Notes under the pieces: generated by a model
The model's database searches: none
What the model was told of the DNA's origin: nothing
The model's input: only the letters and a program-made list of their open reading frames with translations
Translations under genes and position numbers: made by a program
NCBI GenBank assembly: GCA_964650255.1
Contig: CAZYQT010000001.1
Location: 39,964-103,963 of the forward strand
Length of the DNA stretch: 64,000 nt
Reading direction: 5' to 3'
From: an uncultured Candidatus Saccharibacteria bacterium
GTDB lineage: Bacteria > Patescibacteriota > Doudnabacteria > UBA920
In this document: piece by piece, positions 6,044-57,625 of the stretch
How positions within the stretch are numbered: position 1 is the first letter of the stretch
Layout of the letters: the number at the start of each line of letters is the position of its first letter

Positions 6044-6541
6044 TTATCCACCCTTAGCGGAATCACTTTTAACCTTGTTCAAGACCAATTCAATAAGATC
6101 GGGGTGAAGAAATTCTAATTTCACCTTGCGGTCAGACATAAAATCTTTTAACCATTGGTGGCGAACGACTTCGTCAGCATAAAATTTTATCGCATTATCT
6201 ATCTGCTGTCTCTTTAAACCATATTTCTCCTGAATAGTACCTCTTGCCATCCACCCCTTGGGAGCTGGCTCTGCAGCAGTACTTTTCTTTTCTATTGCTT
6301 TCACTAAATCTGGGTGGAAATACTCCGCTTCATTACCTTTGGGTTTAAAGAATTTTTTAAACTTACCTGCATAGAATTTATTGTTCCTGTATTTTTTTAA
6401 CTCCGTCAGGATAAAACTCCTACCAACATCAAAATTTTTTTCCATTTCGGAAATAGATAACCACCCTTCAGGTATTGTACTCTTCGATTGAATGTCCGCA
6501 ATAATTTTTTCTACCAAAGCTGGGGCAAAAAACTCTGACAA
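6044..6541 (-). CDS. Repeat protein with ~60-aa P(E/K)GW...HTH-like...(Y/F)FHPDL(V/I) units (short paralog, TTG start in ORF track)
   Basis: Contains PEGWLSISEMEKNF...EYFHPDLVKAIEK and PKGWMARGTIQEKYGL...EFLHPDLIELV. It uses the same repeat unit as the upstream 508-aa ORF. The ORF overlaps 6511..8037 and begins at a TTG just after a T6 run. Confidence 0.5.
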   Translation of the reverse strand: MSEFFAPALVEKIIADIQSKSTIPEGWLSISEMEKNFDVGRSFILTELKKYRNNKFYAGKFKKFFKPKGNEAEYFHPDLVKAIEKKSTAAEPAPKGWMARGTIQEKYGLKRQQIDNAIKFYADEVVRHQWLKDFMSDRKVKLEFLHPDLIELVLNKVKSDSAKGG

Positions 6542-8037
6542 AAATTATTAGTGTTGGCGTAATTTTTAAAATACTCCGGATTTGTTGATCTATACTTATT
6601 AGCTATTGCTTGAAGGGCGCTTTCTCTACCTTTAAACTGCTTGGCCAAATCTGCTCGACTCTTCCACCCCTCTGGGGGCCTTTCATAAGAATTTACTTCT
6701 GCAATAATTTTCGCTACTAAATCAGGATGATAATAGTCATGGGTTTGATTGTTTTTCCCGTAATAATTTTGAATCCACTCTGGATTGTCTGAGGCCAATC
6801 TTTTGGCCATATTCCGGAACCTTTCATGATTCTGAATATCAAGCTGATCAGCTAATTGGGAAACAGTCCTCCACCCCTCCGGAGCATATTTACGGTTTTT
6901 GTGTTGATTAATTAATGTCTTAACTAAATCTGGATGCAAAAATTCTTCCACCCTTTTAATCTTTGGAATCAGATAATCATTAAACCACTCAGGATTATTT
7001 TCGCGATAAGGCTTAACAATTTTTTCTACAGTATGCAGTGCCATCCCTGTTTCTGACTGGATTCCTGTTTTAGTCACCCAACCTTTAGGCGCTTCTTCAA
7101 TTGGTAATAATCTCTCAACTAATTTAGCTACAAAATCAGGATGGAAATACTCAAATGCCCTACTATTGGTAGGATTTTTAAAAGTCTTTATCCAATCATC
7201 TGAAATACCTTCAGCCTTAAACTTCCCAATTAGTTTGCTAACCGTCCAAGAGGTCACTCCTGCCCTATCAGCAATACTAGCCGTAGTGAGCCAATCTGGG
7301 GGAGCAAACTCCAAATTTTGGTTCTCAATTGGTTTTTGCTCTACCGGTTTGACAATTGGTGATTTCAATTGCAGGGCATCCTTAACCATTTCTTTCCATT
7401 GAGGTATATCTCTAAATCTTATCTTCTTAACATTGTTTTCTGGAAAACTGCTTAATTCAGATTTTGTTAAATTGATAAACTCAGAGTATTCCTGACCATC
7501 CTTTAAATAAATAATATATGTAGCATTCTCTGCTTCGTCGTTAACAAATACCGCTTTTCTAATATCAGTTATGTTATAGATATTGTAACCATTCGCTCGA
7601 ACCATATTTGGACTTAACACACCTTCTATAAGCTCATAATCTAAATCTAACTCAGAAAGCAATTCAACCAAAGTGCCATTCCTTGGCCAAAGTGCTTTCT
7701 TTTCGAACCCTGCACCAGCACCAGTTTTAAGCTCGCCCTCTCCCGAAGGTAAAATTACCTTATCAAGCTTAATAACCTTAGATGGTAACTTTAAAAAATT
7801 ACCACTTTCAATTTGGTAATCCATAAAGGCCTTAACATCAAAATGTTTAATTGAATCTCTTTGCTTATTTCTAGAGCCACCAACGCCATAAAAAGCCTCA
7901 GCGCCTAAGGCTTCAACCACATCTTCTAGGGATGTACCATTATCTAACAGCTCTCTTATTTGGGAGCTGACACGTTCTTTGTAGCTAGCCTTACGAGATT
8001 CCTGTGCTAAAAATTCTGAACTCAGGTGTTCTGACAT
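6511..8037 (-). CDS. Repeat protein with four tandem ~60-aa units (xPxGW + helix-turn-helix-like segment + NPEW + (Y/F)(F/Y)HPDLV)
   Basis: Units start at APPDWLTTASIADRAGVTSWTVSKLI, APKGWVTKTGIQSETGMALHTVEKIV, APEGWRTVSQLADQLDIQNHERF and PPEGWKSRADLAKQFKGRESALQAI. Each is followed by NPEW/NPEY and FHPD(L/F)V. No known family recognised. Confidence 0.55.
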   Translation of the reverse strand: MSEHLSSEFLAQESRKASYKERVSSQIRELLDNGTSLEDVVEALGAEAFYGVGGSRNKQRDSIKHFDVKAFMDYQIESGNFLKLPSKVIKLDKVILPSGEGELKTGAGAGFEKKALWPRNGTLVELLSELDLDYELIEGVLSPNMVRANGYNIYNITDIRKAVFVNDEAENATYIIYLKDGQEYSEFINLTKSELSSFPENNVKKIRFRDIPQWKEMVKDALQLKSPIVKPVEQKPIENQNLEFAPPDWLTTASIADRAGVTSWTVSKLIGKFKAEGISDDWIKTFKNPTNSRAFEYFHPDFVAKLVERLLPIEEAPKGWVTKTGIQSETGMALHTVEKIVKPYRENNPEWFNDYLIPKIKRVEEFLHPDLVKTLINQHKNRKYAPEGWRTVSQLADQLDIQNHERFRNMAKRLASDNPEWIQNYYGKNNQTHDYYHPDLVAKIIAEVNSYERPPEGWKSRADLAKQFKGRESALQAIANKYRSTNPEYFKNYANTNNFCQSFLPQLW

Positions 8038-10210: not shown

Positions 10211-11560
10211 CTATTTAAACCCCGCCAACCCGCCGCGCATGAATGTGGTTTTGAATTCTTTCATACGGCCAAAGCCTACTGAGTCGCGAATAATGTCGCG
10301 CGCAAGGAATGCGGGCACGCGTGCCACTGTAAAATCATCATACTTTTGATTAATTTTATCCATAGCTTGCATTAGCTGGGAGCGAGTTTTGGCCCGATCT
10401 ACTGTTTCAAACAAATTCCCCTGCGTTACTTCTGGCACAAGGCCAAACACAGTCACGCCAATCAGGTAAGATTGTTTTTCAATTTCTTTAAGCTGTCCGC
10501 TTTGCTTCAGCAAACTCATGGCCTCCATATAAATTTCCCGGCCATCTTGCAGATAATGATCTAACTTTGCGCCTTTGCCCACATGCATGCGCTCAGGATC
10601 ATGCACATGCACGTGCACACCATTACCCATAACGCCATTTACGCGAAGACGAGCACCAACCATTTCCGACAACTTGTACAGCACAGAGCGCATTACATTT
10701 TGCTGGCGATACTCCTGCGGAATTGTATACATATGACCAATTGATTTCATAGTGCCGTCTGCGGCATCAGTTTGCTCAAACTCTTCTTTCCAGCTACCTT
10801 CGAGCTGGCCCATGCTGTGCAAATGATACCCTTGAATCCCGTAATGGGCTACAAGTTTACTCAAAGGATAATCACGCAAATCTTTAAGCGTACGAATGCC
10901 TAAGGTGCCAAGGTTGCGCTTCATACGGCGGCCAATACCAGGAATATCTTCTAGGTCGAGACGATAATACAACGCGTCCTTATCTTGCGGCCGCACCACA
11001 ACTAAGCCATCCGGTTTTTGTAGGTCTGATGCAATCTTCGCCACTAACTTGCTATAACTAACACCAGCACTACAGCGAATCCAGTCCCCGACTTCGGTCT
11101 TCATGCGGTACTTAATTTCCTGCACAATCTTCACTGCCTCAAACCACGGATCAGTTGGTACCCACTCACCAGCAGAATTCTTCTCACGGATGTTGCACGC
11201 TTTAGTTAAATCCAAAAAGGCTTCATCAATACTATACTTTTCCACCTTGTCTGTATAATCCTCAAACACTTTTAAAAACCGAGCCGTGTAATAACGATAG
11301 CGCTCCGGATGAGTTTTAGTAAGATGAATCTTCGGGTACAACTTGCGCGCCTCCCAAACTGGAGTACCAGTTTTAATGCCCCATCGTTTCGCCTCAACAC
11401 TAGCGGCAATAATGATGCCGCCCAAATGTTCGCACACCCCCACAGGCTCACCACGCCAAGCTGGGTTATCTTGCTGCTCAACCGTAGCAAAATAACTGTT
11501 CATATCGATGTGGGCTATAACAGGTGTTTGAGCTGATTCAATTGGATAATCTCTAGACAT
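10211..11560 (-). CDS. dinB: DNA polymerase IV (Y-family, DinB)
   Basis: IAHIDMNSYFATVEQQDNPAWRGEPVGV and SIDEAFLDLT are Y-family catalytic motifs. Start placed at the internal ATG (MSRDYP...) near 11560. The ORF-track start at 11611 is probably too long. Confidence 0.9.
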   Translation of the reverse strand: MSRDYPIESAQTPVIAHIDMNSYFATVEQQDNPAWRGEPVGVCEHLGGIIIAASVEAKRWGIKTGTPVWEARKLYPKIHLTKTHPERYRYYTARFLKVFEDYTDKVEKYSIDEAFLDLTKACNIREKNSAGEWVPTDPWFEAVKIVQEIKYRMKTEVGDWIRCSAGVSYSKLVAKIASDLQKPDGLVVVRPQDKDALYYRLDLEDIPGIGRRMKRNLGTLGIRTLKDLRDYPLSKLVAHYGIQGYHLHSMGQLEGSWKEEFEQTDAADGTMKSIGHMYTIPQEYRQQNVMRSVLYKLSEMVGARLRVNGVMGNGVHVHVHDPERMHVGKGAKLDHYLQDGREIYMEAMSLLKQSGQLKEIEKQSYLIGVTVFGLVPEVTQGNLFETVDRAKTRSQLMQAMDKINQKYDDFTVARVPAFLARDIIRDSVGFGRMKEFKTTFMRGGLAGFK

Positions 11561-11603
11561 TAAAGTGATAATTTGGCTTATTTTAATGATTATTTTACTA
11601 TAC

Positions 11604-11632
11604 TTGACCAATTTATAATATTATGATATAAT
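11604..11632 (+). promoter_or_regulatory. Sigma70-like promoter for avd: TTGACC (-35), 17-nt spacer, TATAAT (-10). GGAGGA RBS follows at ~11655
   Basis: ttgaccaatttataatattatgatataat lies upstream of the ATG at 11671 in the divergent dinB/avd intergenic region. Confidence 0.5.
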
Positions 11633-11670
11633 GTTAAAGTTCGAATAAAAAACTGGAGGAATTTTGTACA

Positions 11671-12159
11671 ATGTTTAGAACATGTTGCGCGCATCACGCC
11701 AATGTAGACGCTCAGGACGAGCAAATGCAGATGGACGAAATGCAAAGAGTTGATTGGCTGATTGAAAACGGCCACGTCAGCTATCACCCCCCCCCGACTC
11801 GGAATTTAACTCAACCTCCTTTATTTCACGCATTGTATCAATTGTATTGTTCATGGTATATTCGCTGTCAGACTCTGCCCAAAAAAGACCGCTTTGCTAT
11901 TGGACATAGAATTGAAAATTTATTACTAGATATGATCGTGAGTGTAACAGGTGCCTATCATACTAAAGATGTTTCTCGGAAAAAAGAACTTCTGTCCGAT
12001 GCTAACCTTACTTTGGAATCGCTTAAGGTAGTAATGAGACTGGCTAAGGATGTGCACGCTTTAGAAAAGCGCTGGTATATTAAATACGAAGCTCAGTTTC
12101 AAGAAATTGGTAAAATGCTAGGAGGCTGGATATCCAGCCTTACAAAAACAAACAGATAA
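11671..12159 (+). CDS. avd: DGR accessory variability determinant (Avd)-like four-helix-bundle protein (the family also annotated as 23S rRNA intervening-sequence protein)
   Basis: The C-terminal 110 aa align by eye with Bordetella phage BPP-1 Avd. LPKKDRFAIGHRIENLLLDMIVSVTGA corresponds to IPRKHGVAREMFLKCLLGQVELFIVAG. EIGKMLGGWISSL corresponds to EVGRILGSWIARV. The gene lies 35 nt upstream of a DGR template repeat. Confidence 0.75.
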   Translation: MFRTCCAHHANVDAQDEQMQMDEMQRVDWLIENGHVSYHPPPTRNLTQPPLFHALYQLYCSWYIRCQTLPKKDRFAIGHRIENLLLDMIVSVTGAYHTKDVSRKKELLSDANLTLESLKVVMRLAKDVHALEKRWYIKYEAQFQEIGKMLGGWISSLTKTNR

Positions 12160-12176
12160 AAACCTGTTTGTTTTTT
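12144..12176. terminator. Bidirectional rho-independent terminator (AAAAACAAACAG-loop-CTGTTTGTTTTT) overlapping the avd stop codon
   Basis: A 12-bp stem with an A-run on one side and a T-run on the other. It would end avd on the plus strand and the TR transcript on the minus strand. Confidence 0.5.
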
Positions 12177-12193
12177 AATATAAGAGTGACTTC

Positions 12194-12309
12194 GGACTGA
12201 CACCACGCCGATATCGTCGTTCGAATTCCTCGGATTCCACCTGTTGACATTGGCACCCTTGTCATCGGCCTTACCGAAATTCACAAGCTTGCCATCAGAA
12301 GTGCGAGAA
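12194..12309 (-). repeat. DGR template repeat (TR), 116 nt, intergenic, sense on the minus strand
   Basis: Direct repeat of 12607..12722 with 19 mismatches. 18 of these fall on positions that are A in this copy (coding/minus sense) and G, T or C in the other copy. Only 1 of the other 88 positions differs. This copy is rich in AAT/AAC/AAG codons in the target frame. Confidence 0.75.
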
Positions 12310-12501
12310 AGGGAACAAGTTTTTTACCCCATTCCATCTAATCAATACGGCTACATCTCACAAAAATGAGTAGTAGCCGCTGTGTAAATATGTGGCAACA
12401 TTCTTATTAAGAATTTGCACCAGAACAAGGCAAGCAGTTCTTCTCTTATATTATAACGGTGGCGAAGGTAATGCATGCACGACCTTTCATTAGCCACCCC
12501 A

Positions 12502-12510
12502 ATTATACCA
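12502..12510 (-). promoter_or_regulatory. Candidate extended -10 element (TGGTATAAT, minus sense) positioned to transcribe the TR in its sense orientation
   Basis: The same TGnTATAAT element recurs upstream of many minus-strand genes in this window. It lies about 190 nt upstream (minus sense) of the TR. Confidence 0.3.
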
Positions 12511-12525
12511 TAAATAAAACCGAAA

Positions 12526-12547
12526 CGAGCTCCCTGACGGGAGCTCG
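12526..12547 (-). other. GC-rich hairpin CGAGCTCCC-TGAC-GGGAGCTCG about 55 nt downstream of the VR/target stop. Candidate DGR cruciform or target-gene terminator
   Basis: A perfect 9-bp stem with a 4-nt loop, followed in minus sense by a T-rich tract (GTTTTATTTAT). Confidence 0.5.
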
Positions 12548-12601
12548 GCAAATGCATCAAAGGTTCAAAACCCAAAACTCAAAGAATCAAAAGAGAAGAA
12601 A

Positions 12602-14686
12602 CTAACGGACTGACACCACGCCGAGACCGTCGCTCGAAAGCCCCGGATCCCACCTGTCGACACTGGCACCCCTGTCACCGGCCCCACCGAAAAACACAAG
12701 CAAGCCAAAAGAAGTGCGAGAATTAGTCCAATCATACATAGTTTCCAGCATTCGTTCATCGCTATTTTTATATCTAATAGCAAAATCATACAAAGCTTCT
12801 GCTGCATTTCTACGGTGATTCTGGTTAATTTTTAATTCAGCTAAAGCTTTTGAAGCGGCTTGCCAGTCTTTATCCATAAGCTTTCTAATTTCCGTTAACT
12901 TCTCGTCAGTTACCTCTTTAGCTTCTGCTTCGCTTAAAGAATCTACTGTTTTTAAATAATCTCGTAGTACTGCTGTCTGTTGTATATAATCTTTTGAGGT
13001 TGAATTATCAATTACTTCCTGACTTACCAAAGCCCAACCTTCTCTAACAGGTTGCTTTTTAAAGAAATCTTCACCCTCATACCAATCTGTATCATATAGT
13101 GGCTTACCGTCTTTGTCTTTAAAAACTTCCTCTAATCTTTTATTTATATTTTCCATACTTGAGCTTCCTGATATTGCATATCTGAGAACCAGCATTTCGC
13201 CTTTTGCTTTTGCTCGCTCAAGCTCCGCATTACTATAAGGGACGGTACTAAATTCTGCACTCAAACTACGTTTAGTTAAGAAGGCCTCATTAAAGGCCTC
13301 AACACCGTAAAAATTCTCAGCCATAATTTCTTGAGCTTTTTCATAAGTAGTCGCACCTTTTTCGATCCTCTCAATCCTTTCGGAAGAAGATTCCTTTTCG
13401 AAAGTATCTATTACATCCGAAAAGTCGGTGTTCTCAGCCTCATTAATTTCTTCAGCAAGGCTCTTTCTTTTTGATTCTTCTGTTCGAGGTCTATACTCAA
13501 CTGTTCTGATGATTTCTGAAAGTTTATCTTTGTCTACTTTGCTTTCTAACTTATTTGCATAATAGTATTGCAACGCTTGCTGAAAGGTTTCGTTTATATC
13601 ACCGTTATAGAATTTCAAAATGAAATCCCGAACACGGCGAGGTTCCATACGATCATCATAAGTAAACGGCTGGGGCTGATCTTCAGCGATTTGTCGATTC
13701 TTAAGAAGCTCTTTAGCTGTTTTATGGAACTCTTCATACTTAGCCAAAATTTCTGGCAAACCCGGAATATCCTCAAGCTGTTCTGGAGTAAGAGCAGTAT
13801 CTCGAGAGTTTAAGTAATCTTTTTGTGGTACTTCTTGAGATTCCTTATCAATACCAAATAATGACTTAGTTGAATGTGAAAAAGTACTACTTGGAAGCTC
13901 TGAAGCCGCTTTTTTATAGACCCAACGACGTAACTGAGCAGGATCCATTGGCTCACGACCAATATATCCTTTCCCGGGTGGGTTCATTAAAGCGACAATT
14001 TTAGTACGCTCTTTATTTACTGACACTTCCTCGGAAGCATCTTCGGAAAGAACAACCTCCCCACCACGTTCAAGGGCATCTAATACTTCGTGCAAACGAA
14101 TAGCAATATTAGGCGCAGCAGCATTGTACTCATCTAAAATAATAACCTTAACTTTCCCCTTTTCCTGTCTTAGGCCAGATGTAACTTTACCGTCTGCAAA
14201 AATATATTCCGGGTCTTCTTCGCCTCGTTTATGAGGATTAGGAATATACCGCCCCATTAAATCTTCTACGTCCGTAGCACCATTTAAGTTTATGTAATGA
14301 ACTTCATAGCCAAGCTCACTTGCCATTTTTCTAACAGTAGTTGTTTTACCGATTGAAGTACCACCCTCAATAAGAATAGGTTCACCGTTTAAAAATGCTA
14401 CTGCTAAATCTCTTTGCATAGGCAAAGATAGTTCAGTGTCATTTATAAAGTCTTCATATTGTTCTCTCTTAGGAACATAGGCGCTTCCTTTAACTGTAGC
14501 TTTTTCTAAATTTACACCTAAATACGAAACCGAGGTTTCGGTTTCCTTAACTGGCTTTTGGTCTTCTAAGACCTCAGAGGTTTCAACCTTAGTCTCTGGC
14601 TCTAGCCCCTCTCCCATTTCTTCAGGAGTCAAAGCATTAAATTTTGTTTCAGATGATCCTGGCATAGATTTACACTTGGTATGCAA
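12602..14686 (-). CDS. DGR target protein: MoxR-like AAA+ ATPase (AAA_5-type) with a long C-terminal extension ending in the variable CLec-like region
   Basis: Walker A GGTSIGKTT and Walker B VIILDEYNAA lie in the N-terminal third. The C-terminus carries the VR, with a YDWTNS...VVSVR pattern reminiscent of DUF1566/FGE-type DGR variable regions. No signal peptide. An internal ATG (MPGSS, ~14665) may be the true start. Confidence 0.75.
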   Translation of the reverse strand: MHTKCKSMPGSSETKFNALTPEEMGEGLEPETKVETSEVLEDQKPVKETETSVSYLGVNLEKATVKGSAYVPKREQYEDFINDTELSLPMQRDLAVAFLNGEPILIEGGTSIGKTTTVRKMASELGYEVHYINLNGATDVEDLMGRYIPNPHKRGEEDPEYIFADGKVTSGLRQEKGKVKVIILDEYNAAAPNIAIRLHEVLDALERGGEVVLSEDASEEVSVNKERTKIVALMNPPGKGYIGREPMDPAQLRRWVYKKAASELPSSTFSHSTKSLFGIDKESQEVPQKDYLNSRDTALTPEQLEDIPGLPEILAKYEEFHKTAKELLKNRQIAEDQPQPFTYDDRMEPRRVRDFILKFYNGDINETFQQALQYYYANKLESKVDKDKLSEIIRTVEYRPRTEESKRKSLAEEINEAENTDFSDVIDTFEKESSSERIERIEKGATTYEKAQEIMAENFYGVEAFNEAFLTKRSLSAEFSTVPYSNAELERAKAKGEMLVLRYAISGSSSMENINKRLEEVFKDKDGKPLYDTDWYEGEDFFKKQPVREGWALVSQEVIDNSTSKDYIQQTAVLRDYLKTVDSLSEAEAKEVTDEKLTEIRKLMDKDWQAASKALAELKINQNHRRNAAEALYDFAIRYKNSDERMLETMYDWTNSRTSFGLLVFFGGAGDRGASVDRWDPGLSSDGLGVVSVR
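12607..12722 (-). repeat. DGR variable repeat (VR) forming the last ~39 codons of the target gene
   Basis: Counterpart of the TR, with substitutions only at TR-adenine sites (10 A>G, 6 A>T, 2 A>C) plus 1 G>T. The two copies end together in a GC-rich stretch GGCGTGGTGTCAGTCC (IMH-like) right at the stop codon. It encodes ...YDWTNSRTSFGLLVFFGGAGDRGASVDRWDPGLSSDGLGVVSVR*. Confidence 0.75.
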
Positions 14687-15086
14687 CTCCCGTATTCATA
14701 CGGATACTGTATCCTTGATTTTCCAATACTAAAAGATTTCGTTTTGTTATTAAAGCTATGACTGATAAATTCCTGTAGTCTGGAATAGCGATTTGGGATT
14801 GCATTTGAGTATGATCAAAAATTTCCACTTGCCCTGTGGGATATTGCATTAGAAAATCATACACATTTTTATTGATTGTACCGCTGAAAGTAAATAACAA
14901 TTTACCTGGCTTATCCATTCTATTTAACAACTCTGAAGTTCTATCTACTTTAATGAAGCCGACTTTCTTTAAAGATTGTTGTAGCTCTTGCACCTGGGTT
15001 TCATCTTCAGCGATGATTAAACCCACTTCCTTTTGACCAGAAGCTATACTCAAAAATTTCTTTAATTCGTCTCTTGTTTGTTCCAT
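14670..15086 (-). CDS. Hypothetical protein (138 aa) between the VWA and AAA+ genes
   Basis: ORF overlapping the upstream and downstream genes by a few nt (operon-like). No confident motif. Confidence 0.4.
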   Translation of the reverse strand: MEQTRDELKKFLSIASGQKEVGLIIAEDETQVQELQQSLKKVGFIKVDRTSELLNRMDKPGKLLFTFSGTINKNVYDFLMQYPTGQVEIFDHTQMQSQIAIPDYRNLSVIALITKRNLLVLENQGYSIRMNTGVAYQV

Positions 15087-15103
15087 AATATGCTTTAAAT
15101 ATA

Positions 15104-17296
15104 CTAAAATTTGTTGTAATTAGCAATTACCTCTTCAATTAAACCAGCCAATTTCCCAGCCATTTCCTCAATATTTACATTGGCCAGACTGTTTGGGTAA
15201 TACTTAGAAACATGTCCAGTACCAGAACCAATCCCCAAGCCAATTAACTTTTGATCGGTTTCCTCTATTACCTTTTTTATCATTCCTTTTAAGGGATACT
15301 GAGAACTTGGATGCTTAGACGATTCAACCGGCTCACCGTCAGACAAAACAATTAGAAACTTTTGATCCACTTTTTGTTTAGCCAAACGCTCTGAAGTTTG
15401 TTCTATAGCCCAACCATCGTCATTGTATGCAGCACCTCGACCCCGTACCTCGCTTAATATTTGTCCCATATTCTCTCGAATTTCTTTCGAGATAGGTTGT
15501 CCAAAATTCTGGTATTCATATATCTTGTCGTTGAATCCTAAAACTTCCAAATTTATTGATAAGCGATTCAAAACTTCAGTTAGTACAATCACTGCTTTGA
15601 AAGTTTCTTCTATTTTTTCACCTGCCATAGAACCTGAAAGATCAACTAATAAAGAAATAGCATAATCTTTTTCTTGAGGGAGTTCCCGTTTTTGCCAAGC
15701 CCGACTTTCCATGGCCGGTACGTCTTTGGCTTTTTCCTGAATACGGCGTTTAATGTCTATACGTTTGCCAGATTTGTGTCCGCCTTCCCAACCGCGCGCA
15801 CGACGCGCCACAAAGATGTCGCGCAAATCTTGCTCGAGTTTGTCTATAATAGGTAAAACTTCCCGTCTATACTGTTCATATATATTGGCATCTTTTTCCA
15901 TTTCCTTTGCCAACATGTCGCGATATTTTTGAATTTCAGATTCATCTATTTCATGACTTTTCCTTTTCTCTGACTTTGGAACGGTTTCTAATTCATTTAC
16001 AGGTTCAAATTCACTAGATTCTTTTTTGCCGCTTTTCCGTTCCTCAGCTTTTTTAGGATTATCCGATAGCTTCCCTTGAAGCTCTTCATTTAGCTCTTTT
16101 TCAAACTGATCCAAGGCAGCCTGAGCTCGCTCCGCAAGTTCCTGCTTTTGAGCTTCCGGCATTGATTCAATATACTCCTTAATTTTCTGCTTTAATTCTT
16201 CTGACAATGAATCGAGGTTAATTGGAGCGCCCTTTGATTTCTCGGATTCACTTGAGGATTCGCCATGCTCTTTCTGTTCTCCTTCAGTGCTTTCTTGGCC
16301 TTGTTGTTCTTGATTCTTTTGCTGCTGCTTTTTAATAGCTTCCTCAATAGCCTCTTCTAATTGTTGTTGTTGTTCAGGAGTCAATTTATCTTTCAACTCT
16401 TGAGGCAAACCCTGGCCAGAGCCACCCTCTCCTTTGCCCTGAGCATCTTTCATCATTTCCTGCATTTGCTGATCCTTCATATCCTCTTCGATCAACTTTT
16501 TGAAATCAGGCCAAACTCTATCACGGTTAATTTCGTAACTCTTTTTAGCGTATTGAGTGATTAATTCTTCACTGCTGTCGGCTTCCTGGCGAGACGGATA
16601 TCGCCACCAAGAATCTTGAGCCGCAGTCAAAGTTTTATTGACCACTTCTTTAACATCGTCTGGTAAATCTTCGCTTAATTCAAATTCTTCGCCCTTAGTT
16701 TCCTTAAACCACTGCTTGATATATTCAAAACCGGCCTGCATAAAACGAGGCTTATAACCCAGCTCATCGGTAGCAGTATTTTTTGCTTTTGCCTCAAAAT
16801 CTAAATCTTGCTCATAGGCGATCCCCATTTGCTCCTTAAACTTTGGATAGCTTTCAGCCACAAAATTATTATCCCGTGGGTCTTCAATGGCATTCATCAT
16901 AAAAGCAAACCCGGGTTCTTGCCATTGCTCGAGAGGAATAAAATCTGCTCTTGAAATTCTTCTATGACCCCCTTCATGTGAAATAACAAACCGCAAATAA
17001 TCCATAGGTTTGTCCAGCAAGTCCTGTGGGTCTATCTTAATAATATTTTTCTCAAAATCCCAATGCCAACCTTCACCTGGCTCATTGAGTTTTACCGGAA
17101 TCCGAAAATCCTTGCCAATAAAATAAGCAAGGGAAGATAGGATTTGCTGTTTGTATTTTATTTCAGACTGTTGTTCTGGAGTAAAGCTAGATAAAATCTT
17201 TTGCTCTTTATTCTCTCTTATAGCTTTATAATTAGGTCTAGCTTCTACCACCATACTAGCCCGGCCTATATCTGAAGTGCTTTCAAAATTCTTCAT
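15104..17296 (-). CDS. VWA-domain protein with an N-terminal HExxH metallopeptidase-like domain (DUF2201-type MoxR partner)
   Basis: SHEGGH (HExxH) near the N-terminus. Long K/E-rich low-complexity coiled region. C-terminal VWA with MIDAS DLSGSM. Genomic pairing with a MoxR-like AAA+ ATPase. Confidence 0.7.
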   Translation of the reverse strand: MKNFESTSDIGRASMVVEARPNYKAIRENKEQKILSSFTPEQQSEIKYKQQILSSLAYFIGKDFRIPVKLNEPGEGWHWDFEKNIIKIDPQDLLDKPMDYLRFVISHEGGHRRISRADFIPLEQWQEPGFAFMMNAIEDPRDNNFVAESYPKFKEQMGIAYEQDLDFEAKAKNTATDELGYKPRFMQAGFEYIKQWFKETKGEEFELSEDLPDDVKEVVNKTLTAAQDSWWRYPSRQEADSSEELITQYAKKSYEINRDRVWPDFKKLIEEDMKDQQMQEMMKDAQGKGEGGSGQGLPQELKDKLTPEQQQQLEEAIEEAIKKQQQKNQEQQGQESTEGEQKEHGESSSESEKSKGAPINLDSLSEELKQKIKEYIESMPEAQKQELAERAQAALDQFEKELNEELQGKLSDNPKKAEERKSGKKESSEFEPVNELETVPKSEKRKSHEIDESEIQKYRDMLAKEMEKDANIYEQYRREVLPIIDKLEQDLRDIFVARRARGWEGGHKSGKRIDIKRRIQEKAKDVPAMESRAWQKRELPQEKDYAISLLVDLSGSMAGEKIEETFKAVIVLTEVLNRLSINLEVLGFNDKIYEYQNFGQPISKEIRENMGQILSEVRGRGAAYNDDGWAIEQTSERLAKQKVDQKFLIVLSDGEPVESSKHPSSQYPLKGMIKKVIEETDQKLIGLGIGSGTGHVSKYYPNSLANVNIEEMAGKLAGLIEEVIANYNKF

Positions 17297-17386
17297 AGAA
17301 ATACTAAAATATTCTATAACTTAACTAAATTATGCCACAAATTGCTATGTTTTTCAAACAAAACACAAACTTGATATACTGACTAT

Positions 17387-17596
17387 ATGGGAATATTTGT
17401 GATTATTATGCTTGTTTACTTCCTAGCTGGAATTTTAATGGCATTATGGGACTTTAGAAAGATTCTATTTAAAAACCCGGGCAATCAAACTGCCAGCAGT
17501 CTTTTCATTGAACCACCAAAATTTTTAGATAACCTCTCTATCAGTACAGCGTTAACATTCATCCTAATTTGGCCAGTTAAATTATTGCTCAAATAG
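17387..17596 (+). CDS. Small membrane protein (hypothetical)
   Basis: 69 aa, two hydrophobic helices. First ORF of the AT-rich plus-strand block. Confidence 0.3.
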   Translation: MGIFVIIMLVYFLAGILMALWDFRKILFKNPGNQTASSLFIEPPKFLDNLSISTALTFILIWPVKLLLK

Positions 17597-17647
17597 CCAG
17601 AAAGAATTTCTCTTTTAAATAAAAGGTAAAGTAAGTATAATTGTTAT

Positions 17648-18076
17648 ATGAAATATATTTTCCTCGCTATTGCCACAATAGCCTTACTGGGAGCTAGTTG
17701 TAATTCTAGCACCAAACAAACTAGTGATTCCTTTGAGCGCAATTTAAAGTGCAAAGAAATTGCCACCCAGTTAGATCAGCAAAAAAGAGAAGATGAACAA
17801 AAATCAAAAGATGCAAAGCTTCTCGTTTTCACCTCTTTTGATAGCAGCGAAACTAAATATAGTGAGAAGTTGAATACATGTCTATATTCCTACACTCTAA
17901 ATATGTACGGAACAGGTGGGGTGCCAAATTCTCAAAGCAGATATCTGATTGATAGCTTAACCAACGAGGTATTGGCTCAATATACTACATCTGACGCGCA
18001 ATCTACCCAAGAAAGAACTGACGCACAAAAAGCATTCTATGATAAATACAGCGAACTATATTTAGGAACTAAATAA
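17648..18076 (+). CDS. Putative lipoprotein
   Basis: Signal peptide plus lipobox LLGASC. 142 aa, AT-rich codon usage. Confidence 0.5.
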   Translation: MKYIFLAIATIALLGASCNSSTKQTSDSFERNLKCKEIATQLDQQKREDEQKSKDAKLLVFTSFDSSETKYSEKLNTCLYSYTLNMYGTGGVPNSQSRYLIDSLTNEVLAQYTTSDAQSTQERTDAQKAFYDKYSELYLGTK

Positions 18077-18083
18077 AATCAAA

Positions 18084-18785
18084 ATGCTATTTAAAAACTT
18101 CTTTCGTAAAGATTTAAACTTAAAGAATCGGTGGTGGCATCGGTTACTACTCGTACTTTTCTTCGTTTCATTCGCTGTCAGCTTATTGTATGCAACATTT
18201 CACACTGGACAACCAGACAGATATCGCCAGGTTAGTAGTCTGAAAGATAGGATGACTAATAATTTAACAAAAATTGGAGATTTAGTTAAACCAGGAGAAA
18301 GAATCGGTGAAAACGAGAATAGAATCAATGATGATCTCTACTATAAAAACGGAGGCTTTTTACTAAGTCAAAATATTTATTGTGCAAAGAATGTTACAAA
18401 CCATGTTGATGACTTTGCCAAGTCTAATGGAGCATCACATTTTAAAGGCAATGATGCTATTATTATGGCTAGTTCACAAGTATCATCCGATGAGTTCAAA
18501 CACTACCTTACTTCAGAATCAGGTAACTGTATAGAAATTGCCAATCTGAGTGATTACGAAAATAAGAACATAATATGGTCTGGAATAGACAAGGTTGTGG
18601 AAAGGTCTGTATTCACAAACTCTATGGATGTATGGACACTAGACCATACGAAAACAAACCTTAATAGGATATTTAATCCCGCCTATCTTGGGATATTAAT
18701 ATTATTTGGAATTATTATGATTCTATACTACAAAGTATTGCTATATATAATTTTCGGTAATAATAAACAATATGAAAATAAATAA
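18084..18785 (+). CDS. Membrane protein with N- and C-terminal TM helices (hypothetical)
   Basis: 233 aa. 8-nt gap to the upstream gene. Confidence 0.45.
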   Translation: MLFKNFFRKDLNLKNRWWHRLLLVLFFVSFAVSLLYATFHTGQPDRYRQVSSLKDRMTNNLTKIGDLVKPGERIGENENRINDDLYYKNGGFLLSQNIYCAKNVTNHVDDFAKSNGASHFKGNDAIIMASSQVSSDEFKHYLTSESGNCIEIANLSDYENKNIIWSGIDKVVERSVFTNSMDVWTLDHTKTNLNRIFNPAYLGILILFGIIMILYYKVLLYIIFGNNKQYENK

Positions 18786-19008
18786 AGATAGAATAATTAT
18801 TATAGTTTTAATACTCTTACTAATTTGGTTCGCCACTGCCATTATTAGATTAGAAAATTATCATTATGCCGTTCAGGTAGGAATGTGTGAAAATACTACT
18901 GAAATTGAACCATTTAAACAGCGTATGGAATTAGAGGATTGCTTAAATCATACCCAAACTAGAACGAGTCCCATCTGGCACTTATTCTATGGGTTGAGAA
19001 TATTTTAA
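18772..19008 (+). CDS. Small membrane protein (hypothetical)
   Basis: 78 aa with an N-terminal TM. Overlaps the upstream gene by 14 nt. Confidence 0.35.
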   Translation: MKINKDRIIIIVLILLLIWFATAIIRLENYHYAVQVGMCENTTEIEPFKQRMELEDCLNHTQTRTSPIWHLFYGLRIF

Positions 19009-19012
19009 ATTT

Positions 19013-19459
19013 ATGTGGTTTTTGTATGTAGTTGGTGTTGTTATAATCATCAGTATCATTCAATGGTTAATTAACAAACGCCGAGAAAAGATTAGAGAAC
19101 AAGTTGCTCACGATCTATTCGATAAATCAGACACAGAAACAATACTAGAAAATTACAAAAATAAACTTTCTGCAATCCTAATTACAACACCAAGAGAAAT
19201 TCCTAAGAGGATATCTTCTTGGGAACTAGCTCGCCTACCTAAATATGCTGCTAAAATAGCTGGGTCTGATTGTCCAAAATGTGAAAGCGGTTATTTAAAA
19301 GTAATATATACATACAACGGTTATGGTAGATTGCCATCCGTGTTTAGTTGCAGTAGTAAAGAATGTAATTATATTATTGGTTTAAAACAAGCCAAAGTGG
19401 AATATGAAAAAAATAACATCAATTCTTTTGCAAAAGATTTCAACCAAGTTTATCCATAA
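19013..19459 (+). CDS. TM-anchored protein with a C4 zinc-ribbon-like motif (CPKC...CSSKEC)
   Basis: 148 aa, N-terminal TM. Cys pairs are spaced as in zinc ribbons. Confidence 0.4.
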   Translation: MWFLYVVGVVIIISIIQWLINKRREKIREQVAHDLFDKSDTETILENYKNKLSAILITTPREIPKRISSWELARLPKYAAKIAGSDCPKCESGYLKVIYTYNGYGRLPSVFSCSSKECNYIIGLKQAKVEYEKNNINSFAKDFNQVYP

Positions 19460-20584
19460 ATGAGCTACTATAATAAAATTAAACTGGAGCTAACAAATCT
19501 GATAGGCTCTTTTAATTCGGCTAATAAACAGCTAGACGACAAATTGGTACTTCTCAAGCAAGAAGAAGACTCACTACAGAGAGAGAAAGATAAATATAAC
19601 CAGATAAAAAAGGAGGTGTTGCAGTTAGCTTTAGAAAGACAGAGGGGCTTTCCTACCTTAGCTAAAGCCTATGATGAATATTTTGCCTTACAAGATAAAT
19701 CTCTCATAGATTTTCTTAGATACAAGGATAGGCCAGCTCCAAGCGCTAGTGACATTGTAAAGGAGTATTCTAGAATAAAGAGAGAAGCTTTGAAAGACAA
19801 GAAAATCTTTCAATATTTGATTGAATACTACGAATCAATTTGCCCATTTCTTATTGAGTTAAAAGAAGAGGAATTATCTGATATAACTGAAGAAGATAAA
19901 CAATATCTGGTTGAGTATTCTGAAGAGGAGCTGGAAGATGAGGTTACAAAATACCTAACCAAAGAAGAATATAGGAAATTACCTACTGCCCAGAGAAACC
20001 AGCAAGCATTGGATAGATATTGGAAAAGGCCCAAATCTAAATGGCATATAGGGAAAATATACGAACGTTATGTAGGGTACTTATTTGAACAGCAAGGATA
20101 TCAAGTAGATTATTTTGGAATATTTAAAGGCTTGGAAGATTTAGGTAGAGATATCATAGCAACTAACAAGAATGAGATTGTCATTATTCAATGTAAAAAT
20201 TGGTCACAATTTAGGACAATATACGAAAAACATATTTTCCAATTTTTTGGCACTGTGTTCCAATATCGTGACGAGAATCCAAATAAAAAAGTTAGGGCTA
20301 TTTTTTATACCACTACCCAACTTTCTGATTTAGCGAGAAGATTTAGCAAAGAGCTAGGCATAGAATTACAAGAACAATTCAAATTCGATAAAAACTACCC
20401 TAGCATTAAATGTAATATCAACAAGCTAACTAAAGAAAAAATATACCACTTGCCTTTCGACCAAAAATACGACCACACTAAAATAACTCCAAAAACAGGA
20501 GAGCTATATGTTGCAACTGTAAAAGAAGCAGAGGATGCAGGTTTCAGAAGAGCTTTCCGTTGGAAAGGAGAATCGAATAAATAA
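19460..20584 (+). CDS. Mrr-like restriction endonuclease (PD-(D/E)xK, Mrr_cat) domain protein with an N-terminal coiled coil
   Basis: IGKIYERYVGYLFEQQGYQVDY...GRDIIATNKNEIVIIQCKNW matches the Mrr catalytic-domain pattern (G..E...LF...G+.V....G.D+.....+...IQCK.W). Confidence 0.6.
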   Translation: MSYYNKIKLELTNLIGSFNSANKQLDDKLVLLKQEEDSLQREKDKYNQIKKEVLQLALERQRGFPTLAKAYDEYFALQDKSLIDFLRYKDRPAPSASDIVKEYSRIKREALKDKKIFQYLIEYYESICPFLIELKEEELSDITEEDKQYLVEYSEEELEDEVTKYLTKEEYRKLPTAQRNQQALDRYWKRPKSKWHIGKIYERYVGYLFEQQGYQVDYFGIFKGLEDLGRDIIATNKNEIVIIQCKNWSQFRTIYEKHIFQFFGTVFQYRDENPNKKVRAIFYTTTQLSDLARRFSKELGIELQEQFKFDKNYPSIKCNINKLTKEKIYHLPFDQKYDHTKITPKTGELYVATVKEAEDAGFRRAFRWKGESNK

Positions 20585-20592
20585 TAATCTAT

Positions 20593-21246
20593 ATGACAAA
20601 CTTAGACGAATCCAATATTGATACTGACTACCCTGAGTCAGTTAAAAAAATAATTGAGGAAATAAACAAGCATAGGATAAAAGCTTTTGAAAAAACTCTT
20701 CCTGAAGGACTAACCTATGAAGATGTTAAGAGTGAGCTCGTAGAAACGTTGAAAGTGTATCATACCTGGCTAGACCATTGCTTCAAATACATTTTTGATA
20801 GTGAGAAGGTAATCGGACAACAGGTCAAAGAGATTAAATCAAAATTTGAGCAAAATGTACTTGAAGAGTTATTTAATAAGGAGCTTACAATTATACGGTG
20901 TGCTTTTGTCTATGCCTGGCTACAAAACTTTGAATTGACAGATTACGGAAAGAAAAATAATCAAGATACTTTTAAGTCACTATATAATCATTATAATCAT
21001 TCGTTAGAAAATATACTTAAATTAAATGGTAGACTAGAGGATAAAAATTGGATATTAGAAGGGCTTAATAAGTACACTTCCCCTACTAAATTTAGTCATG
21101 ACGATTTTATTGAAAAGGCTGCGGAAGGAGTAGCTAGAATCCCTTTTGAAAGCACAGAAGGCCGGCTCGGAGGTGGGCTTTATGATGGACTAACGCTCCT
21201 GATACAAAATACAATACAAAATGATAAGACCACCTTACTTGAATAA
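20593..21246 (+). CDS. Hypothetical protein (217 aa), last gene of the AT-rich plus-strand block
   Basis: ORF contiguous with the Mrr-like gene (9-nt gap). No recognisable motif. Confidence 0.4.
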   Translation: MTNLDESNIDTDYPESVKKIIEEINKHRIKAFEKTLPEGLTYEDVKSELVETLKVYHTWLDHCFKYIFDSEKVIGQQVKEIKSKFEQNVLEELFNKELTIIRCAFVYAWLQNFELTDYGKKNNQDTFKSLYNHYNHSLENILKLNGRLEDKNWILEGLNKYTSPTKFSHDDFIEKAAEGVARIPFESTEGRLGGGLYDGLTLLIQNTIQNDKTTLLE

Positions 21247-21279
21247 AAAAAGAGCTAAGCTGCCCTATTTGCATTGTAT

Positions 21280-21440
21280 TTAAGTTGATTTCTCCCACTT
21301 TCTTTGGACTTTTGGTCTTGGTTTTGGTATTTAGTTTTGGGGTATTTAAGTCAGTAGTTTAGTCTTGGTTTTAGGGTTTAGTTGGTTTTAAAGATATTTT
21401 TGGTTTTTAGTTAGATATTGTGTACCTTGTAGTACGGTGT
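21280..21440. repeat. GT-rich low-complexity tract (degenerate TTTTGG / TTTAGTTTTGG-like units)
   Basis: tttggacttttggtcttggttttggtatttagttttggggtatttaagtcagtagtttagtcttggttttagggtttagttggtttt... no ORF, strong strand asymmetry (G+T on the plus strand). Confidence 0.45.
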
Positions 21441-21759
21441 CGTTCAGTGGATTCTCTGGTGAGAGTAATAGTCAACGGTTTGGCTATTAACATTGAGTAG
21501 TAAAAACAGTAGTTTTAGCTTCTCAACTGGTTGAACCCTAGTTCAACTAGTTCTTCCACCAGTTCCTCATACACTGAACACCTCCATCATATCTGAAAAA
21601 TATCCTTTGTCAAGCGGAATTTTTGCACTAGCTAAAACTAAGAGCTTTTGTTAAAATAGGTTTTAGCTGCGTCGTAGAGATGCACCACCTTGAAAAAGGA
21701 TCATGTGCATGGTATGATGTGCGTGACAACCGAGCTCAAAAGCCACATTGGCTCGAAAT

Positions 21760-21790
21760 AAAGCCGCCCGAATGGGCGGCTTTATCATTT
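21760..21790. terminator. Bidirectional rho-independent terminator AAAGCCGCCC-GAAT-GGGCGGCTTT with a flanking T-tract
   Basis: A perfect 10-bp GC-rich stem, A-run upstream and T-run downstream. Lies just past the stop of the minus-strand gene 21821..22195. Confidence 0.55.
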
Positions 21791-21820
21791 AAAAATTTCC
21801 ATGCTAAAGAAGGTGCGCAC

Positions 21821-22195
21821 TTACATCTTCGCATTTCCCCTGCGCACTTCAACGTGCAAGGCTTTGTGGAAAAGGATTACTGACAAAACAACAGCCAAAT
21901 AACTTAACCAAAAATAAACATGATGGTACATTTCGCGGCCGATCAACACTGAAGTAACGGCCATGTCAACCAAAATCATGATGATCAGCCATACTATGGC
22001 CGTGAAAAAGCATTCCAAATAATTGATTACCCCCATGCGACGAATCACTGCTGTGGTAATCATTATCAATACAACAAAAAATAAAATCTTGACTACCAAG
22101 TTATCGATATCAAGATAATTTATAAAAATGACTTTGGTTAAAACAAAAAGCACCTCGCTAACAATTGTTCCAATGACTAGCGAAGCGATATTCAT
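21821..22195 (-). CDS. Polytopic small membrane protein (hypothetical)
   Basis: 124 aa, 3-4 TM helices. Confidence 0.4.
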   Translation of the reverse strand: MNIASLVIGTIVSEVLFVLTKVIFINYLDIDNLVVKILFFVVLIMITTAVIRRMGVINYLECFFTAIVWLIIMILVDMAVTSVLIGREMYHHVYFWLSYLAVVLSVILFHKALHVEVRRGNAKM

Positions 22196-22737
22196 TAGAC
22201 TGAAGTTGCTTTAGCGCGCTTAGTAGTTTTACGAGCAGTTGTTTTTCTAGCAGTATTCTTGCGCGTGGTTTTTTTCTTGGCTGCTGGAGTAATAAAATCA
22301 TCAAAACTCCAAGCTTGGCTTTCGGCTACCGGGACTTTTACTGTTGATACAGAAGCTGCTGGCGCTGGAGCCATAAAAGAATTCAAACTTTCCATGCGAG
22401 AGCTGGCTTTAGCCTTTTTGCGACCACGCCAATTATGTGGCACAAAGCCATGGAACAATCCAGCTGGAGCTTGGGCATTCGGGCCATAAACCAAAGCGTA
22501 CCATTCAAGACCCAACACAACTCCATACCAACCGCCCAAGAAAAGCATCAACAACATTGTCGTAAAGTCTAAAGCTGGGATTGCGCCTTGCGGCATGCCA
22601 AAAGAGTAAGTATCGTAGTCAACAGTTAAAAGTAGGTCATACAAAACAAATACAGAGCGGTGCAACATACCAAAAAGGACCATGCCGAGAATTGAACAAA
22701 GGAATAAATAAAGCGCTTTAATTGTGGTTTTTTTCAT
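22195..22737 (-). CDS. Membrane protein with a basic C-terminal tail (TTRKNTARKTTARKTTKR)
   Basis: 180 aa, N-terminal TM helices, Lys/Arg/Thr-rich repeats at the C-terminus. Confidence 0.45.
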   Translation of the reverse strand: MKKTTIKALYLFLCSILGMVLFGMLHRSVFVLYDLLLTVDYDTYSFGMPQGAIPALDFTTMLLMLFLGGWYGVVLGLEWYALVYGPNAQAPAGLFHGFVPHNWRGRKKAKASSRMESLNSFMAPAPAASVSTVKVPVAESQAWSFDDFITPAAKKKTTRKNTARKTTARKTTKRAKATSV

Positions 22738-25994: not shown

Positions 25995-26402
25995 CTAGAG
26001 AGCGTCTAAGGCTTGATTAACCAGCGCATCAGCTTCTTTGTTGTACTCACGACGCACGTGCACAAATGAATAGGAATTAAACTTTTTTAACAAAGCTAAA
26101 ACCTTCGCAGCCAACTCTTGCAGAGCTGGTTGTTTTATTTTGTACACACCTTGCATTTGTTTCACTATCAATTCCGAATCCATTTGGATTTTTAAATCTG
26201 TAGCGCCAAGGTTAACTGATTCTTCCAGTGCCTTAATAAGCGCACTGTATTCAGCCACATTGTTGGTAGTGTCGCCAATGTATCCGCCGTAAGAATACAA
26301 CAACTCCCCTGCCTCACTTTTAATTACTAATCCAATCCCTGCTGGCCCAGGATTACCGCGCGCACCGCCATCAGTATTAATAACAACTAATTTTTTATTC
26401 AT
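25995..26402 (-). CDS. rnhA: Ribonuclease HI
   Basis: INTDGGARGNPGPAGIG...AEYSALIKALE...REYNKEADALVNQAL matches the RNase H catalytic D, E, D, D context. Confidence 0.85.
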   Translation of the reverse strand: MNKKLVVINTDGGARGNPGPAGIGLVIKSEAGELLYSYGGYIGDTTNNVAEYSALIKALEESVNLGATDLKIQMDSELIVKQMQGVYKIKQPALQELAAKVLALLKKFNSYSFVHVRREYNKEADALVNQALDAL

Positions 26403-50242: not shown

Positions 50243-51781
50243 TTATCTCACTTTATAAACAATAATGTTGTTTTTGCTATAGATCTTTTCAAAATTTTCA
50301 TGACTGGGATCTTGCCTATCAATATAATCACTCAAGTTCCCATTACGTTTGGCATCAATAAACACAAACTCGGCATTTAAATCTTTAGCAACTTCGTCAT
50401 GAAGTGTTGTAACAGATCCCCAATCTTGCTTTTCATCGTCAGCCACATCGCGCCATTTCCAATACAAATCTGGGTCGTAAATAAACATGAAAGTCGGGTC
50501 CATACCAACCGGATAATAATTCTGACTGTCCCAGTAAAATAACTGCGGAAATTGATCCCACTGCGTGTTAATAACAATATCCCCTGGTTGGCTTTGCTCA
50601 GCCATTTTCTTAGCAACAATTTCAAACCGATGAGCTGACTCACCATCAGCTAAATAGGAATTTACGTTGTGGAAGTTGTACCAACAGGTCAAAACAATAG
50701 CACAAGCAACCACTACCAATGCCAGCCCAGCCTGCCAATGCTCCTGGCAGGTTTTTTTTATTTCTTGCCACTTCAGTTGAGCTAAATATGGAGACAAAGT
50801 TATGGCCGCAGAGAGCACTGCAAATGGCACAAAATATTCAATGAACCTGCGGTGGCGCATGCACAGAACAAATAAAATTATAGTTGCAGCATTAATCCAC
50901 AAACTTTCCCATTTAATTTTTTTGTGATAAAACTCATGCCCAGCAACAATTAAACTCAAAATCCAGGCTAACAAAATTGGAACATCAGACTTTAAAAACC
51001 AACTCAAGCTATATGGCAACCACTCATTTCCAGCTGGCACCTGGCTCCCTGCTCCAAGGCCAGTAAGAAAAATTTGATTATACAAAGACAACAACAAATT
51101 GGCGTGATGCGGGTGGAGCACTAACCCAAGAACTATTCCTGCCGCGCTGGCAATTAATGGAATGAAAGCAAACTTGCGCTCTAAAATAAATATGGCGGCA
51201 AAGTAGGCGCCTAGAATTAGCGGAACAAACACGAACCCGCCATAAGTCCACACAAATAAAAAACTTGCTGCGACAATCCCTACGGCAGCCCAATTATTTT
51301 TGGTCCGCTGCCAGACAACGACCAAGGCCATAATTACGCTGAGCAAAGCCAAGGACAAAGTATTGGCTTTAACAAGATTAATTCGAAACAGAAAATCTGT
51401 TGAGCCCAACAATAGCAATGCAATCCACCATGGCTTTCCAGGAACTTTAAGCTGGCTAAGTAGCAAATAAAACGCTGCTATAAATATCATTGCAAATAAA
51501 ACTACTGACAAATACAACGAATCAGTATTGTTAAATGGGATTAGCAAAACATGATACAGAAAGTGTTGATCAGCAAACCCATCTTTCCAGGTAGTGTAAG
51601 TTAAATACGGAAACGAGCTGGTCAGTTGACCATGCTCAATTAACTGAGAAACTTTAGCATGATAAAAACCATCCGGATCTGCTAGCAATCCCCTGTTTGA
51701 GATTTGGAGGAAACCCATGACAGCAAGGCCCAAAACCAGACTAATGAAAGAATTGTTATTGAACTTGATAAATTTCCACAT
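50243..51781 (-). CDS. Polytopic membrane protein, possibly a GT-C-fold glycosyltransferase (ArnT/PMT-like)
   Basis: 512 aa, more than 10 TM helices with a C-terminal soluble domain. Adjacent to a paralog-like membrane protein and a GtrA gene. Confidence 0.4.
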   Translation of the reverse strand: MWKFIKFNNNSFISLVLGLAVMGFLQISNRGLLADPDGFYHAKVSQLIEHGQLTSSFPYLTYTTWKDGFADQHFLYHVLLIPFNNTDSLYLSVVLFAMIFIAAFYLLLSQLKVPGKPWWIALLLLGSTDFLFRINLVKANTLSLALLSVIMALVVVWQRTKNNWAAVGIVAASFLFVWTYGGFVFVPLILGAYFAAIFILERKFAFIPLIASAAGIVLGLVLHPHHANLLLSLYNQIFLTGLGAGSQVPAGNEWLPYSLSWFLKSDVPILLAWILSLIVAGHEFYHKKIKWESLWINAATIILFVLCMRHRRFIEYFVPFAVLSAAITLSPYLAQLKWQEIKKTCQEHWQAGLALVVVACAIVLTCWYNFHNVNSYLADGESAHRFEIVAKKMAEQSQPGDIVINTQWDQFPQLFYWDSQNYYPVGMDPTFMFIYDPDLYWKWRDVADDEKQDWGSVTTLHDEVAKDLNAEFVFIDAKRNGNLSDYIDRQDPSHENFEKIYSKNNIIVYKVR

Positions 51782-53342: not shown

Positions 53343-53392
53343 AAAGGGTAAGTGTGATGTTAATCACTCTTACCCTTTTGAAATACGACACC

Positions 53393-54775: not shown

Positions 54776-54785
54776 TCTTTTTCTC

Positions 54786-55346: not shown

Positions 55347-55361
55347 ATAATTCTCCCGATT

Positions 55362-57584: not shown

Positions 57585-57625
57585 CCAAAAAAAAGACCGG
57601 TATTTTTCAAATACCGATCTTTTGT
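57585..57625. terminator. Bidirectional rho-independent terminator (AAAAGACCGGTATTT-TTC-AAATACCGATCTTTT)
   Basis: A near-perfect 12-bp stem with one mismatch, A-run upstream and T-run downstream. Located after the stop of 57639..57920. Confidence 0.5.

Follow-up and report, generated by a model that had tools for sequence, protein, structure and literature searches.

A truncated diversity-generating retroelement without a reverse transcriptase gene at the edge of a strain-specific island in a Patescibacteria genome

Diversity-generating retroelements (DGRs) of the candidate phyla radiation (CPR) were described by Wu et al. 2018 (NAR 46:11, PMC5758913), who found that 90% of them have the architecture B3, in which the template repeat (TR) is followed by the accessory gene avd and the reverse transcriptase (RT) gene, TR-(avd)-RT, with avd inverted. 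The same study reported CPR targets with a Midasin AAA-ATPase domain (the 'UVR4' class). In the MoxR-vWA ternary conflict systems described by Kaur, Burroughs, Iyer and Aravind 2020 (eLife, PMC7159879), a DGR diversifies a CLec/FGS domain in the operon. Here we analysed a DGR locus that resembles both groups, located in a 64,000-nucleotide stretch (hereafter the window) of contig CAZYQT010000001.1 from an uncultured Candidatus Saccharibacteria bacterium. A preliminary description of this DNA had reported an avd gene, a TR and a target gene with a variable repeat (VR) but no RT, and had regarded the layout as atypical. Comparison with related loci reveals a truncated, ordinary instance of an already known DGR class. 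The locus is a truncated derivative of B3 and not a complete member, because TR-(avd) is present but the RT is missing. Its AAA-type target is typical of the CPR 'UVR4' class. The coordinates of all features are given in Table 1.

The DGR nature of the locus is clear from the two 117-nt direct repeats, which share 84% identity. Read on the minus strand, 18 of their 19 mismatches are located at adenines of the intergenic copy (hypergeometric P = 3e-13). This copy has 28 adenines, of which 27 lie in codon positions 1 or 2 and 18 differ in the genic copy. The final 19 nt of the two repeats are identical, with divergence directly after them. The adenine-specific differences therefore identify the intergenic copy as the template repeat and the genic copy as the variable repeat. 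The VR is the 3' end of the target open reading frame (ORF) and lies inside a C-type-lectin (CLec)/FGE-like fold, and the N-terminal part of the target matches Pfam AAA_5 (dynein/midasin-related, E = 2.9e-12). Together with the match of the avd product to bAvd (PF22296), the repeat statistics, the codon bias and the CLec fold of the VR domain establish a bona fide DGR, with avd on the plus strand and the TR, VR and target on the minus strand, exactly as first described. The 90% protein cluster of the target has a single member and no VR variants, and a Logan contig (L002) is identical to the window over the shared part, VR included.

The orientation of avd is not atypical for the lineage; an inverted avd is the norm in this family. 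Scanning GTDB representative genomes with an Avd alignment gave 56 loci with an Avd relative, 52 of which have an RT on the opposite strand immediately upstream of avd. In locus L003, on a 787-kb contig, the order is RVT_1 (minus), bAvd (plus), AAA_5 target (minus), 138-aa protein and VWA/CobT_C protein. The same order was found in L007-9, where the start codons of RT and avd are divergent and only 4 nt apart, and in L010-12, where a fragment at the contig end contains RT motifs 4-7. The TR/VR mismatches in these three groups of loci are adenine-specific as well (15/15, 14/14 and 22/24, respectively, the last value being that of L011). The window Avd has 19 relatives in the database. Its identity is 48-77% to 13 aligned Avd homologues and 85% to P0123, the truncated Avd of L003. 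Viral contigs contain only distant Avd relatives (34-42% identity).

The reported lack of an RT in the window was confirmed by three approaches. No RVT_1 Pfam match was obtained among the submitted window ORFs of at least 200 aa, the other large window ORFs being identified via synteny with the annotated locus L001. A tblastn search of the six frames of the 64 kb with the RT of the intact relative L007 returned chance matches only (best E = 0.07), and a regular expression for the RT motifs (SQ...YxDD) had no match in the window. An RNase H/RVT_3-domain ORF at about 25998-26402 was considered as a candidate RT and rejected, being a chromosomal backbone gene for RNase HI. The preliminary description had also raised the idea of an RT just outside the window, which was followed up on both sides: no RT was found in a further ~8 kb to the left (Logan contig L077) or in the ribosomal-protein cluster to the right (L076). 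The negative results cover roughly 72 kb (the 64-kb window and ~8 kb to its left) of a genome whose source contig is 114.5 kb long. The cassette itself has no DGR-clade RT, and its similarity to complete cassettes breaks off at the expected start of the RT.

The end of this homology coincides with the end of an island. Nucleotide homology to the cassettes of the RT-bearing loci L003 and L014 extends leftwards from window position 17247 and breaks off exactly at 11787, and identity to the backbone of the island-free strain L013 stops at the same position. L013, from another sample, is 98.3% identical to window positions 10730-11787 and 99.85% identical to 21683-22333, with 326 bp in between. 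L001, whose DinB is 86% identical to that of the window, lacks the region from 11.6 to 21.7 kb and matches the window in gene order on either flank, sharing enolase, iPGM, RecJ, RNase H, PEGA and MreB on one side and DinB, a 107-aa protein, a histidine kinase, a response regulator, SpoU, MraZ and RsmH on the other. The island is likewise absent from L004-6, where both flanks are syntenic. It consists of the RT-less DGR cassette (11788-17296) and 4.4 kb of unrelated cargo, which is not homologous to any of the other DGR loci compared and gave no phage-like match in PHROGs. An independent Logan assembly (L002, run SRR8893623) reproduces window positions 11205-21320 exactly, at 100% identity and with the left junction included. 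The cassette is thus truncated at the left edge of a strain-specific island.

The left junction lies in a poly-C tract within the first codons of avd. Because the breakpoint is located there, the RT gene, the avd start codon and the region upstream of avd are not in the locus. Residues 1-39 of the avd ORF are 100% identical to residues 1-39 of P0138, a 97-aa backbone protein whose gene is the divergent neighbour of dinB in L004-6 and L013, and no copy of P0138 residues 40-97 was found anywhere in the 64-kb window. Because these residues match P0138 and the remainder of P0138 is missing, the avd ORF is a chimera that combines the promoter, ribosome-binding site (RBS), ATG and 39 codons of the backbone gene with Avd from about its sixth codon. 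In relatives, the Avd N-terminus (M..TPLFQ) begins ~10-15 residues ahead of the PPLFHALYQ of the window. The promoter that had been assigned to avd, TTGACC-17-TATAAT, is a real pattern fitting 11 of 12 positions in a promoter scan, but it is not avd's own: it belongs to the backbone 97-aa gene and sits within a stretch 97-98% identical to the island-free strain L013.

The length of the poly-C tract varies among relatives, being C9 in the window, C13 in L003 (9909-9921) and C16 in L014 (9960-9975), in each case in the first avd codons. This variable tract is confined to the sub-clade of the window, L003 and L014. In L003, C13 shifts avd out of frame with its ATG (ATG ACT TAT AAA TTA C13 ...), and no canonical start is present near avd or RT. 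The poly-C at the divergent start of avd and RT may be a fragile or phase-variable site, or it may reflect homopolymer error in long-read assemblies. It could also act as a slipped-strand on/off switch for Avd.

Two hairpins lie in this region, one next to the TR and one in the spacer. The hairpin reported between the avd stop codon and the TR end is present, with a 14-bp stem predicted by RNAfold in both the window and L003; L007 and L011 have hairpins at the corresponding place whose sequences differ. This first hairpin would terminate transcription in both directions and form the 3' structure of the TR RNA. The other is a 9-bp GC-rich hairpin with a T-run, ~58 nt downstream of the window VR and ~55-75 nt downstream across relatives, which is also terminator-like. 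This hairpin is kept in L003, L007 and L011 with compensatory changes (GAGCTCCC vs CGACTCCC), and it is either the target-gene terminator or the inverted repeat that follows the initiation of mutagenic homing (IMH) site of DGRs.

The explanation we favour begins with a CPR-type B3 cassette, whose minus-strand order is the VWA/CobT_C gene, the gene of the 138-aa protein, the gene of the AAA_5-CLec variable protein ending in the VR, the spacer and the TR; avd comes last and is encoded on the plus strand. Relatives with a complete cassette have the RT next, divergent from avd and a few nucleotides from the avd start codon. The cassette forms the left end of a 9.9-kb island that is present here and absent from a 98-99.8% identical strain. 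With the break in the first avd codons, avd was joined in frame, by chance or selection, to the promoter, RBS, ATG and 39 codons of the backbone gene. The adenine-specific TR/VR differences would have been written by an RT in the donor or an ancestor, before the truncation, and the target operon is possibly still functional with a fixed VR. Since the element as it stands would be unable to make cDNA, it is most likely a frozen remnant; we think it likely that the locus is a non-autonomous, probably inactive DGR remnant that was recently stranded. Of the options named in the preliminary description, the comparative data bear out the RT-less remnant.

The preliminary description had also mentioned that something else might supply cDNA synthesis, and had noted the Y-family polymerase gene dinB next to avd and divergent from it. 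The product of this gene has Pfam matches to IMS, IMS_C and IMS_HHH_1. Replacement of the RT by DinB, acting in mutagenic cDNA or DNA synthesis, is suggested by position alone, as dinB fills the slot that the RT occupies in relatives. Synteny effectively refutes it: dinB and its neighbours (a 107-109-aa protein, a histidine kinase, a response regulator and the 97-aa gene) are kept in the DGR-less loci L001, L004-6, L013 and L070, i.e., in strains and species without any DGR. Furthermore, the window DinB is 60-86% identical to DNA polymerase IV homologues across Patescibacteria, no DinB occurs within 10 kb at any of the 56 GTDB scan loci or at any of 59 related DGR loci (0/59), and no paper in the library searched ties DGRs functionally to Y-family polymerases. 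The contig of the P0140 strain ends 87 nt upstream of dinB and is uninformative on this point. DinB is a housekeeping gene of the backbone, not part of the DGR and irrelevant to it, and it lies in the RT slot because the breakpoint placed the cassette next to it. The adjacency is therefore coincidental, as the preliminary description had allowed, and the idea of DinB as the RT substitute can practically be dismissed. It is also improbable that the poly-C junction is an assembly or binning artefact and that the real genome has an RT after avd. Homopolymers are prone to errors, in the L014 assembly an N10 gap adjoins the poly-C, and Logan contig L002 ends at 11205 and 21320, hinting at graph complexity near the island. 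However, the identical junction was obtained in two assemblies (the window contig and L002), C9 is far shorter than any assembler k-mer and so cannot cause a false join, and the join is in frame, at the point where the empty allele continues with a different sequence.

The alternative that deserves most attention is that the locus is non-autonomous but active, with a compatible DGR RT encoded elsewhere in the genome using the TR RNA and the chimeric Avd to diversify the VR. Several observations weigh against the view of a frozen remnant: the TR, VR, Avd core, target, 138-aa protein and VWA protein are all intact, mismatches between TR and VR are as cleanly confined to adenines as in relatives with an RT (18/19 here, 22/24 in L011), and avd is in frame behind a strong promoter. 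All of these would fit a module in use with a trans-acting RT as well. In addition, co-transcription of TR and RT is not a requirement, and more than one DGR is present in ~10% of the complete genomes that carry any (Wu et al. 2018, PMC5758913). On the other hand, the RT is almost always right beside avd in this family (52/56), the roughly 72 kb inspected contain none, and the target is disrupted in L022, the one other clear-cut RT-less locus found. Avd also bears a 39-aa N-terminal extension and would have to function with it. Moreover, the intact TR, VR, Avd and target operon need no ongoing selection, because the island is young, its flanks being 98-99.8% identical to the empty allele. Considering these points, we regard activity through an RT in trans as unlikely, and somewhat more doubtful still the idea of a portable 'DGR satellite', i.e., an island-borne RT-less Avd-TR-target module whose Avd is expressed via promoter and start-codon capture and whose RT acts in trans. 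A recently stranded remnant remains our preferred reading.

Loss or damage of the RT recurs within this Avd family in CPR genomes. In L022 (2109-5563), which retains avd, the target is split, no RT is adjacent and the only trace of one is a fragment 9 kb away; in L029 (1316-2838) the RT is truncated after motif 4, and in L034 (7390-8221) it is split between two ORFs. Another CPR genome, L007 (6249-13552), has a complete DGR of the same family beside mraZ/rsmH/ftsI. The cassette is thus found at differing chromosomal sites between genomes, which is consistent with its horizontal movement.

Table 1. Coordinates of features at the DGR locus, in window positions
Feature	Position	Strand	Basis or remark
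DinB/DNA polymerase IV (Y-family), 449/466 aa	10211-11560/11611	-	Pfam IMS, IMS_C, IMS_HHH_1
Sigma-70-like promoter TTGACC-17-TATAAT of the backbone 97-aa gene, now upstream of the chimeric avd ORF	11604-11632	+	
avd ORF, 162 aa	11671-12159	+	Residues 59-156 match Pfam bAvd PF22296, E = 6.9e-16
First 39 codons of backbone 97-aa gene (P0138/P0139 type), in-frame fusion to avd	11671-11787	+	
Poly-C tract C9: left junction of the island and start of homology to intact DGRs	11787-11795	+	
Strain-specific island, 9,895 bp, in place of 326 bp of the island-free allele	11788-21682		
Avd core (bAvd four-helix-bundle accessory protein), without its own start codon	11788-12159	+	
AT-rich 14-bp hairpin between avd stop and TR 3' end	12160-12192		RNAfold
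Template repeat (TR), 117 nt	12193-12309	-	Intergenic repeat copy
VR-TR spacer	12310-12605	-	~73% identical to L003 spacer
GC-rich hairpin and T-run within the spacer	12526-12547	-	Terminator scan
Target (variable protein), 694 aa: N-terminal AAA_5 (MoxR/midasin-like) ATPase and C-terminal C-type-lectin/FGE-like domain with VR	12602-14686	-	
Variable repeat (VR), 117 nt, final 39 codons of the target gene	12606-12722	-	
Conserved 138-aa partner protein	14670-15086	-	
VWA/CobT_C partner protein, 730 aa	15104-17296	-	Pfam CobT_C (E = 6e-16) and VWA
Rest of island: small membrane/unknown ORFs, Mrr_cat nuclease, 217-aa ORF, 430 nt of G/T-rich non-coding DNA	17297-21682	+	Pfam, PHROGs
Mrr_cat nuclease	19460-20584		Pfam

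The target is encoded together with two partners that accompany it in other genomes. The 138-aa protein is found alongside the target and the VWA protein in L003, L007, L014-L017, L020, L021, L025, L026, L028 and others, and the trio of AAA_5 target, ~138-aa protein and VWA protein was found at about 15 related loci. The C-terminal 265-aa CLec/VR domain of the target (12605-13399, minus strand) also exists as stand-alone proteins of ~290-330 aa (P0146-P0159) in other CPR genomes, which end in an LGVxxSR motif, as the target does. The variable domain therefore appears to be modular and only sometimes fused to AAA_5.

Further features of the window were recorded. The right end of the island (21250-21682) is ~430 nt of non-coding DNA made of G/T-rich degenerate short repeats (GGTTTT/TAGTTT), and Logan contig L002 breaks off within it, at 21320. 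Positions 6044-8037, which separate the response regulator from the histidine kinase, contain two ORFs (165 and 508 aa) with ~207-nt periodic repeats and the motif 'F.HPDLV...'. These ORFs are absent at that position in L001 and L004-6, marking a second strain-variable insertion. Seven large ORFs (186-528 aa) without a Pfam match lie at 50243-59158 and adjoin an 847-aa TraG/VirD4-like coupling ATPase (59222-61765); from its gene content, the 50243-61765 cluster may encode a CPR type-IV-like secretion or DNA-uptake system. An Rfam scan of 10-22.5 kb gave sub-threshold chance matches only, no tRNAs were found in the window, and two DNA-pattern scans of metagenome contigs, for the avd 5' region and the backbone junction, gave no match.

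For annotation, the locus is a cautionary case: CPR DGRs as a rule have an inverted avd, and a polymerase gene in the place of the RT can stem from a breakpoint and not from a new mechanism. It also provides a clean, datable example of the stranding of a DGR cassette, as its breakpoint is a homopolymer at the place where avd and RT diverge and the allele without the island can be compared with it. If VR variation were seen in reads, the locus would be a natural test case for DGR trans-complementation.

Compared with known systems, the window most resembles the B3 CPR DGRs (Wu et al. 2018, PMC5758913), with which it shares the inverted avd, an AAA_5/midasin-like target with a C-terminal VR, TR adenines at codon positions 1/2 and a Patescibacteria/CPR host; its gene order is that of L003, L007 and L014. 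It differs from them in lacking the RT and the native avd 5' end, so that avd would be expressed, if at all, as a 39-codon fusion. The degenerate DGRs L022, L029 and L034 belong to the same Avd family and likewise have a missing or damaged RT, but the parts retained in the window are intact, and its clean breakpoint at an island edge contrasts with decay in place. The differences from the DGR of Bordetella phage BPP-1 (mtd-VR / avd / TR / brt) are larger: in the window, avd is on the opposite strand and after the TR instead of before it, both the RT and the 140-nt TR-RT spacer are lacking, and the target is an AAA+ ATPase fusion of cytoplasmic type where the phage has a tail fibre. The MoxR-vWA ternary systems (PMC7159879) combine in one operon a MoxR-clade AAA+ ATPase with a vWA protein and a small third component (VMAP/iSTAND). 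In the window, the AAA_5 and VWA/CobT_C domains co-occur with the conserved 138-aa third gene, a putative counterpart of that component, and the window differs from those systems in that its CLec domain is fused to the AAA_5 ATPase and its genome belongs to the CPR.

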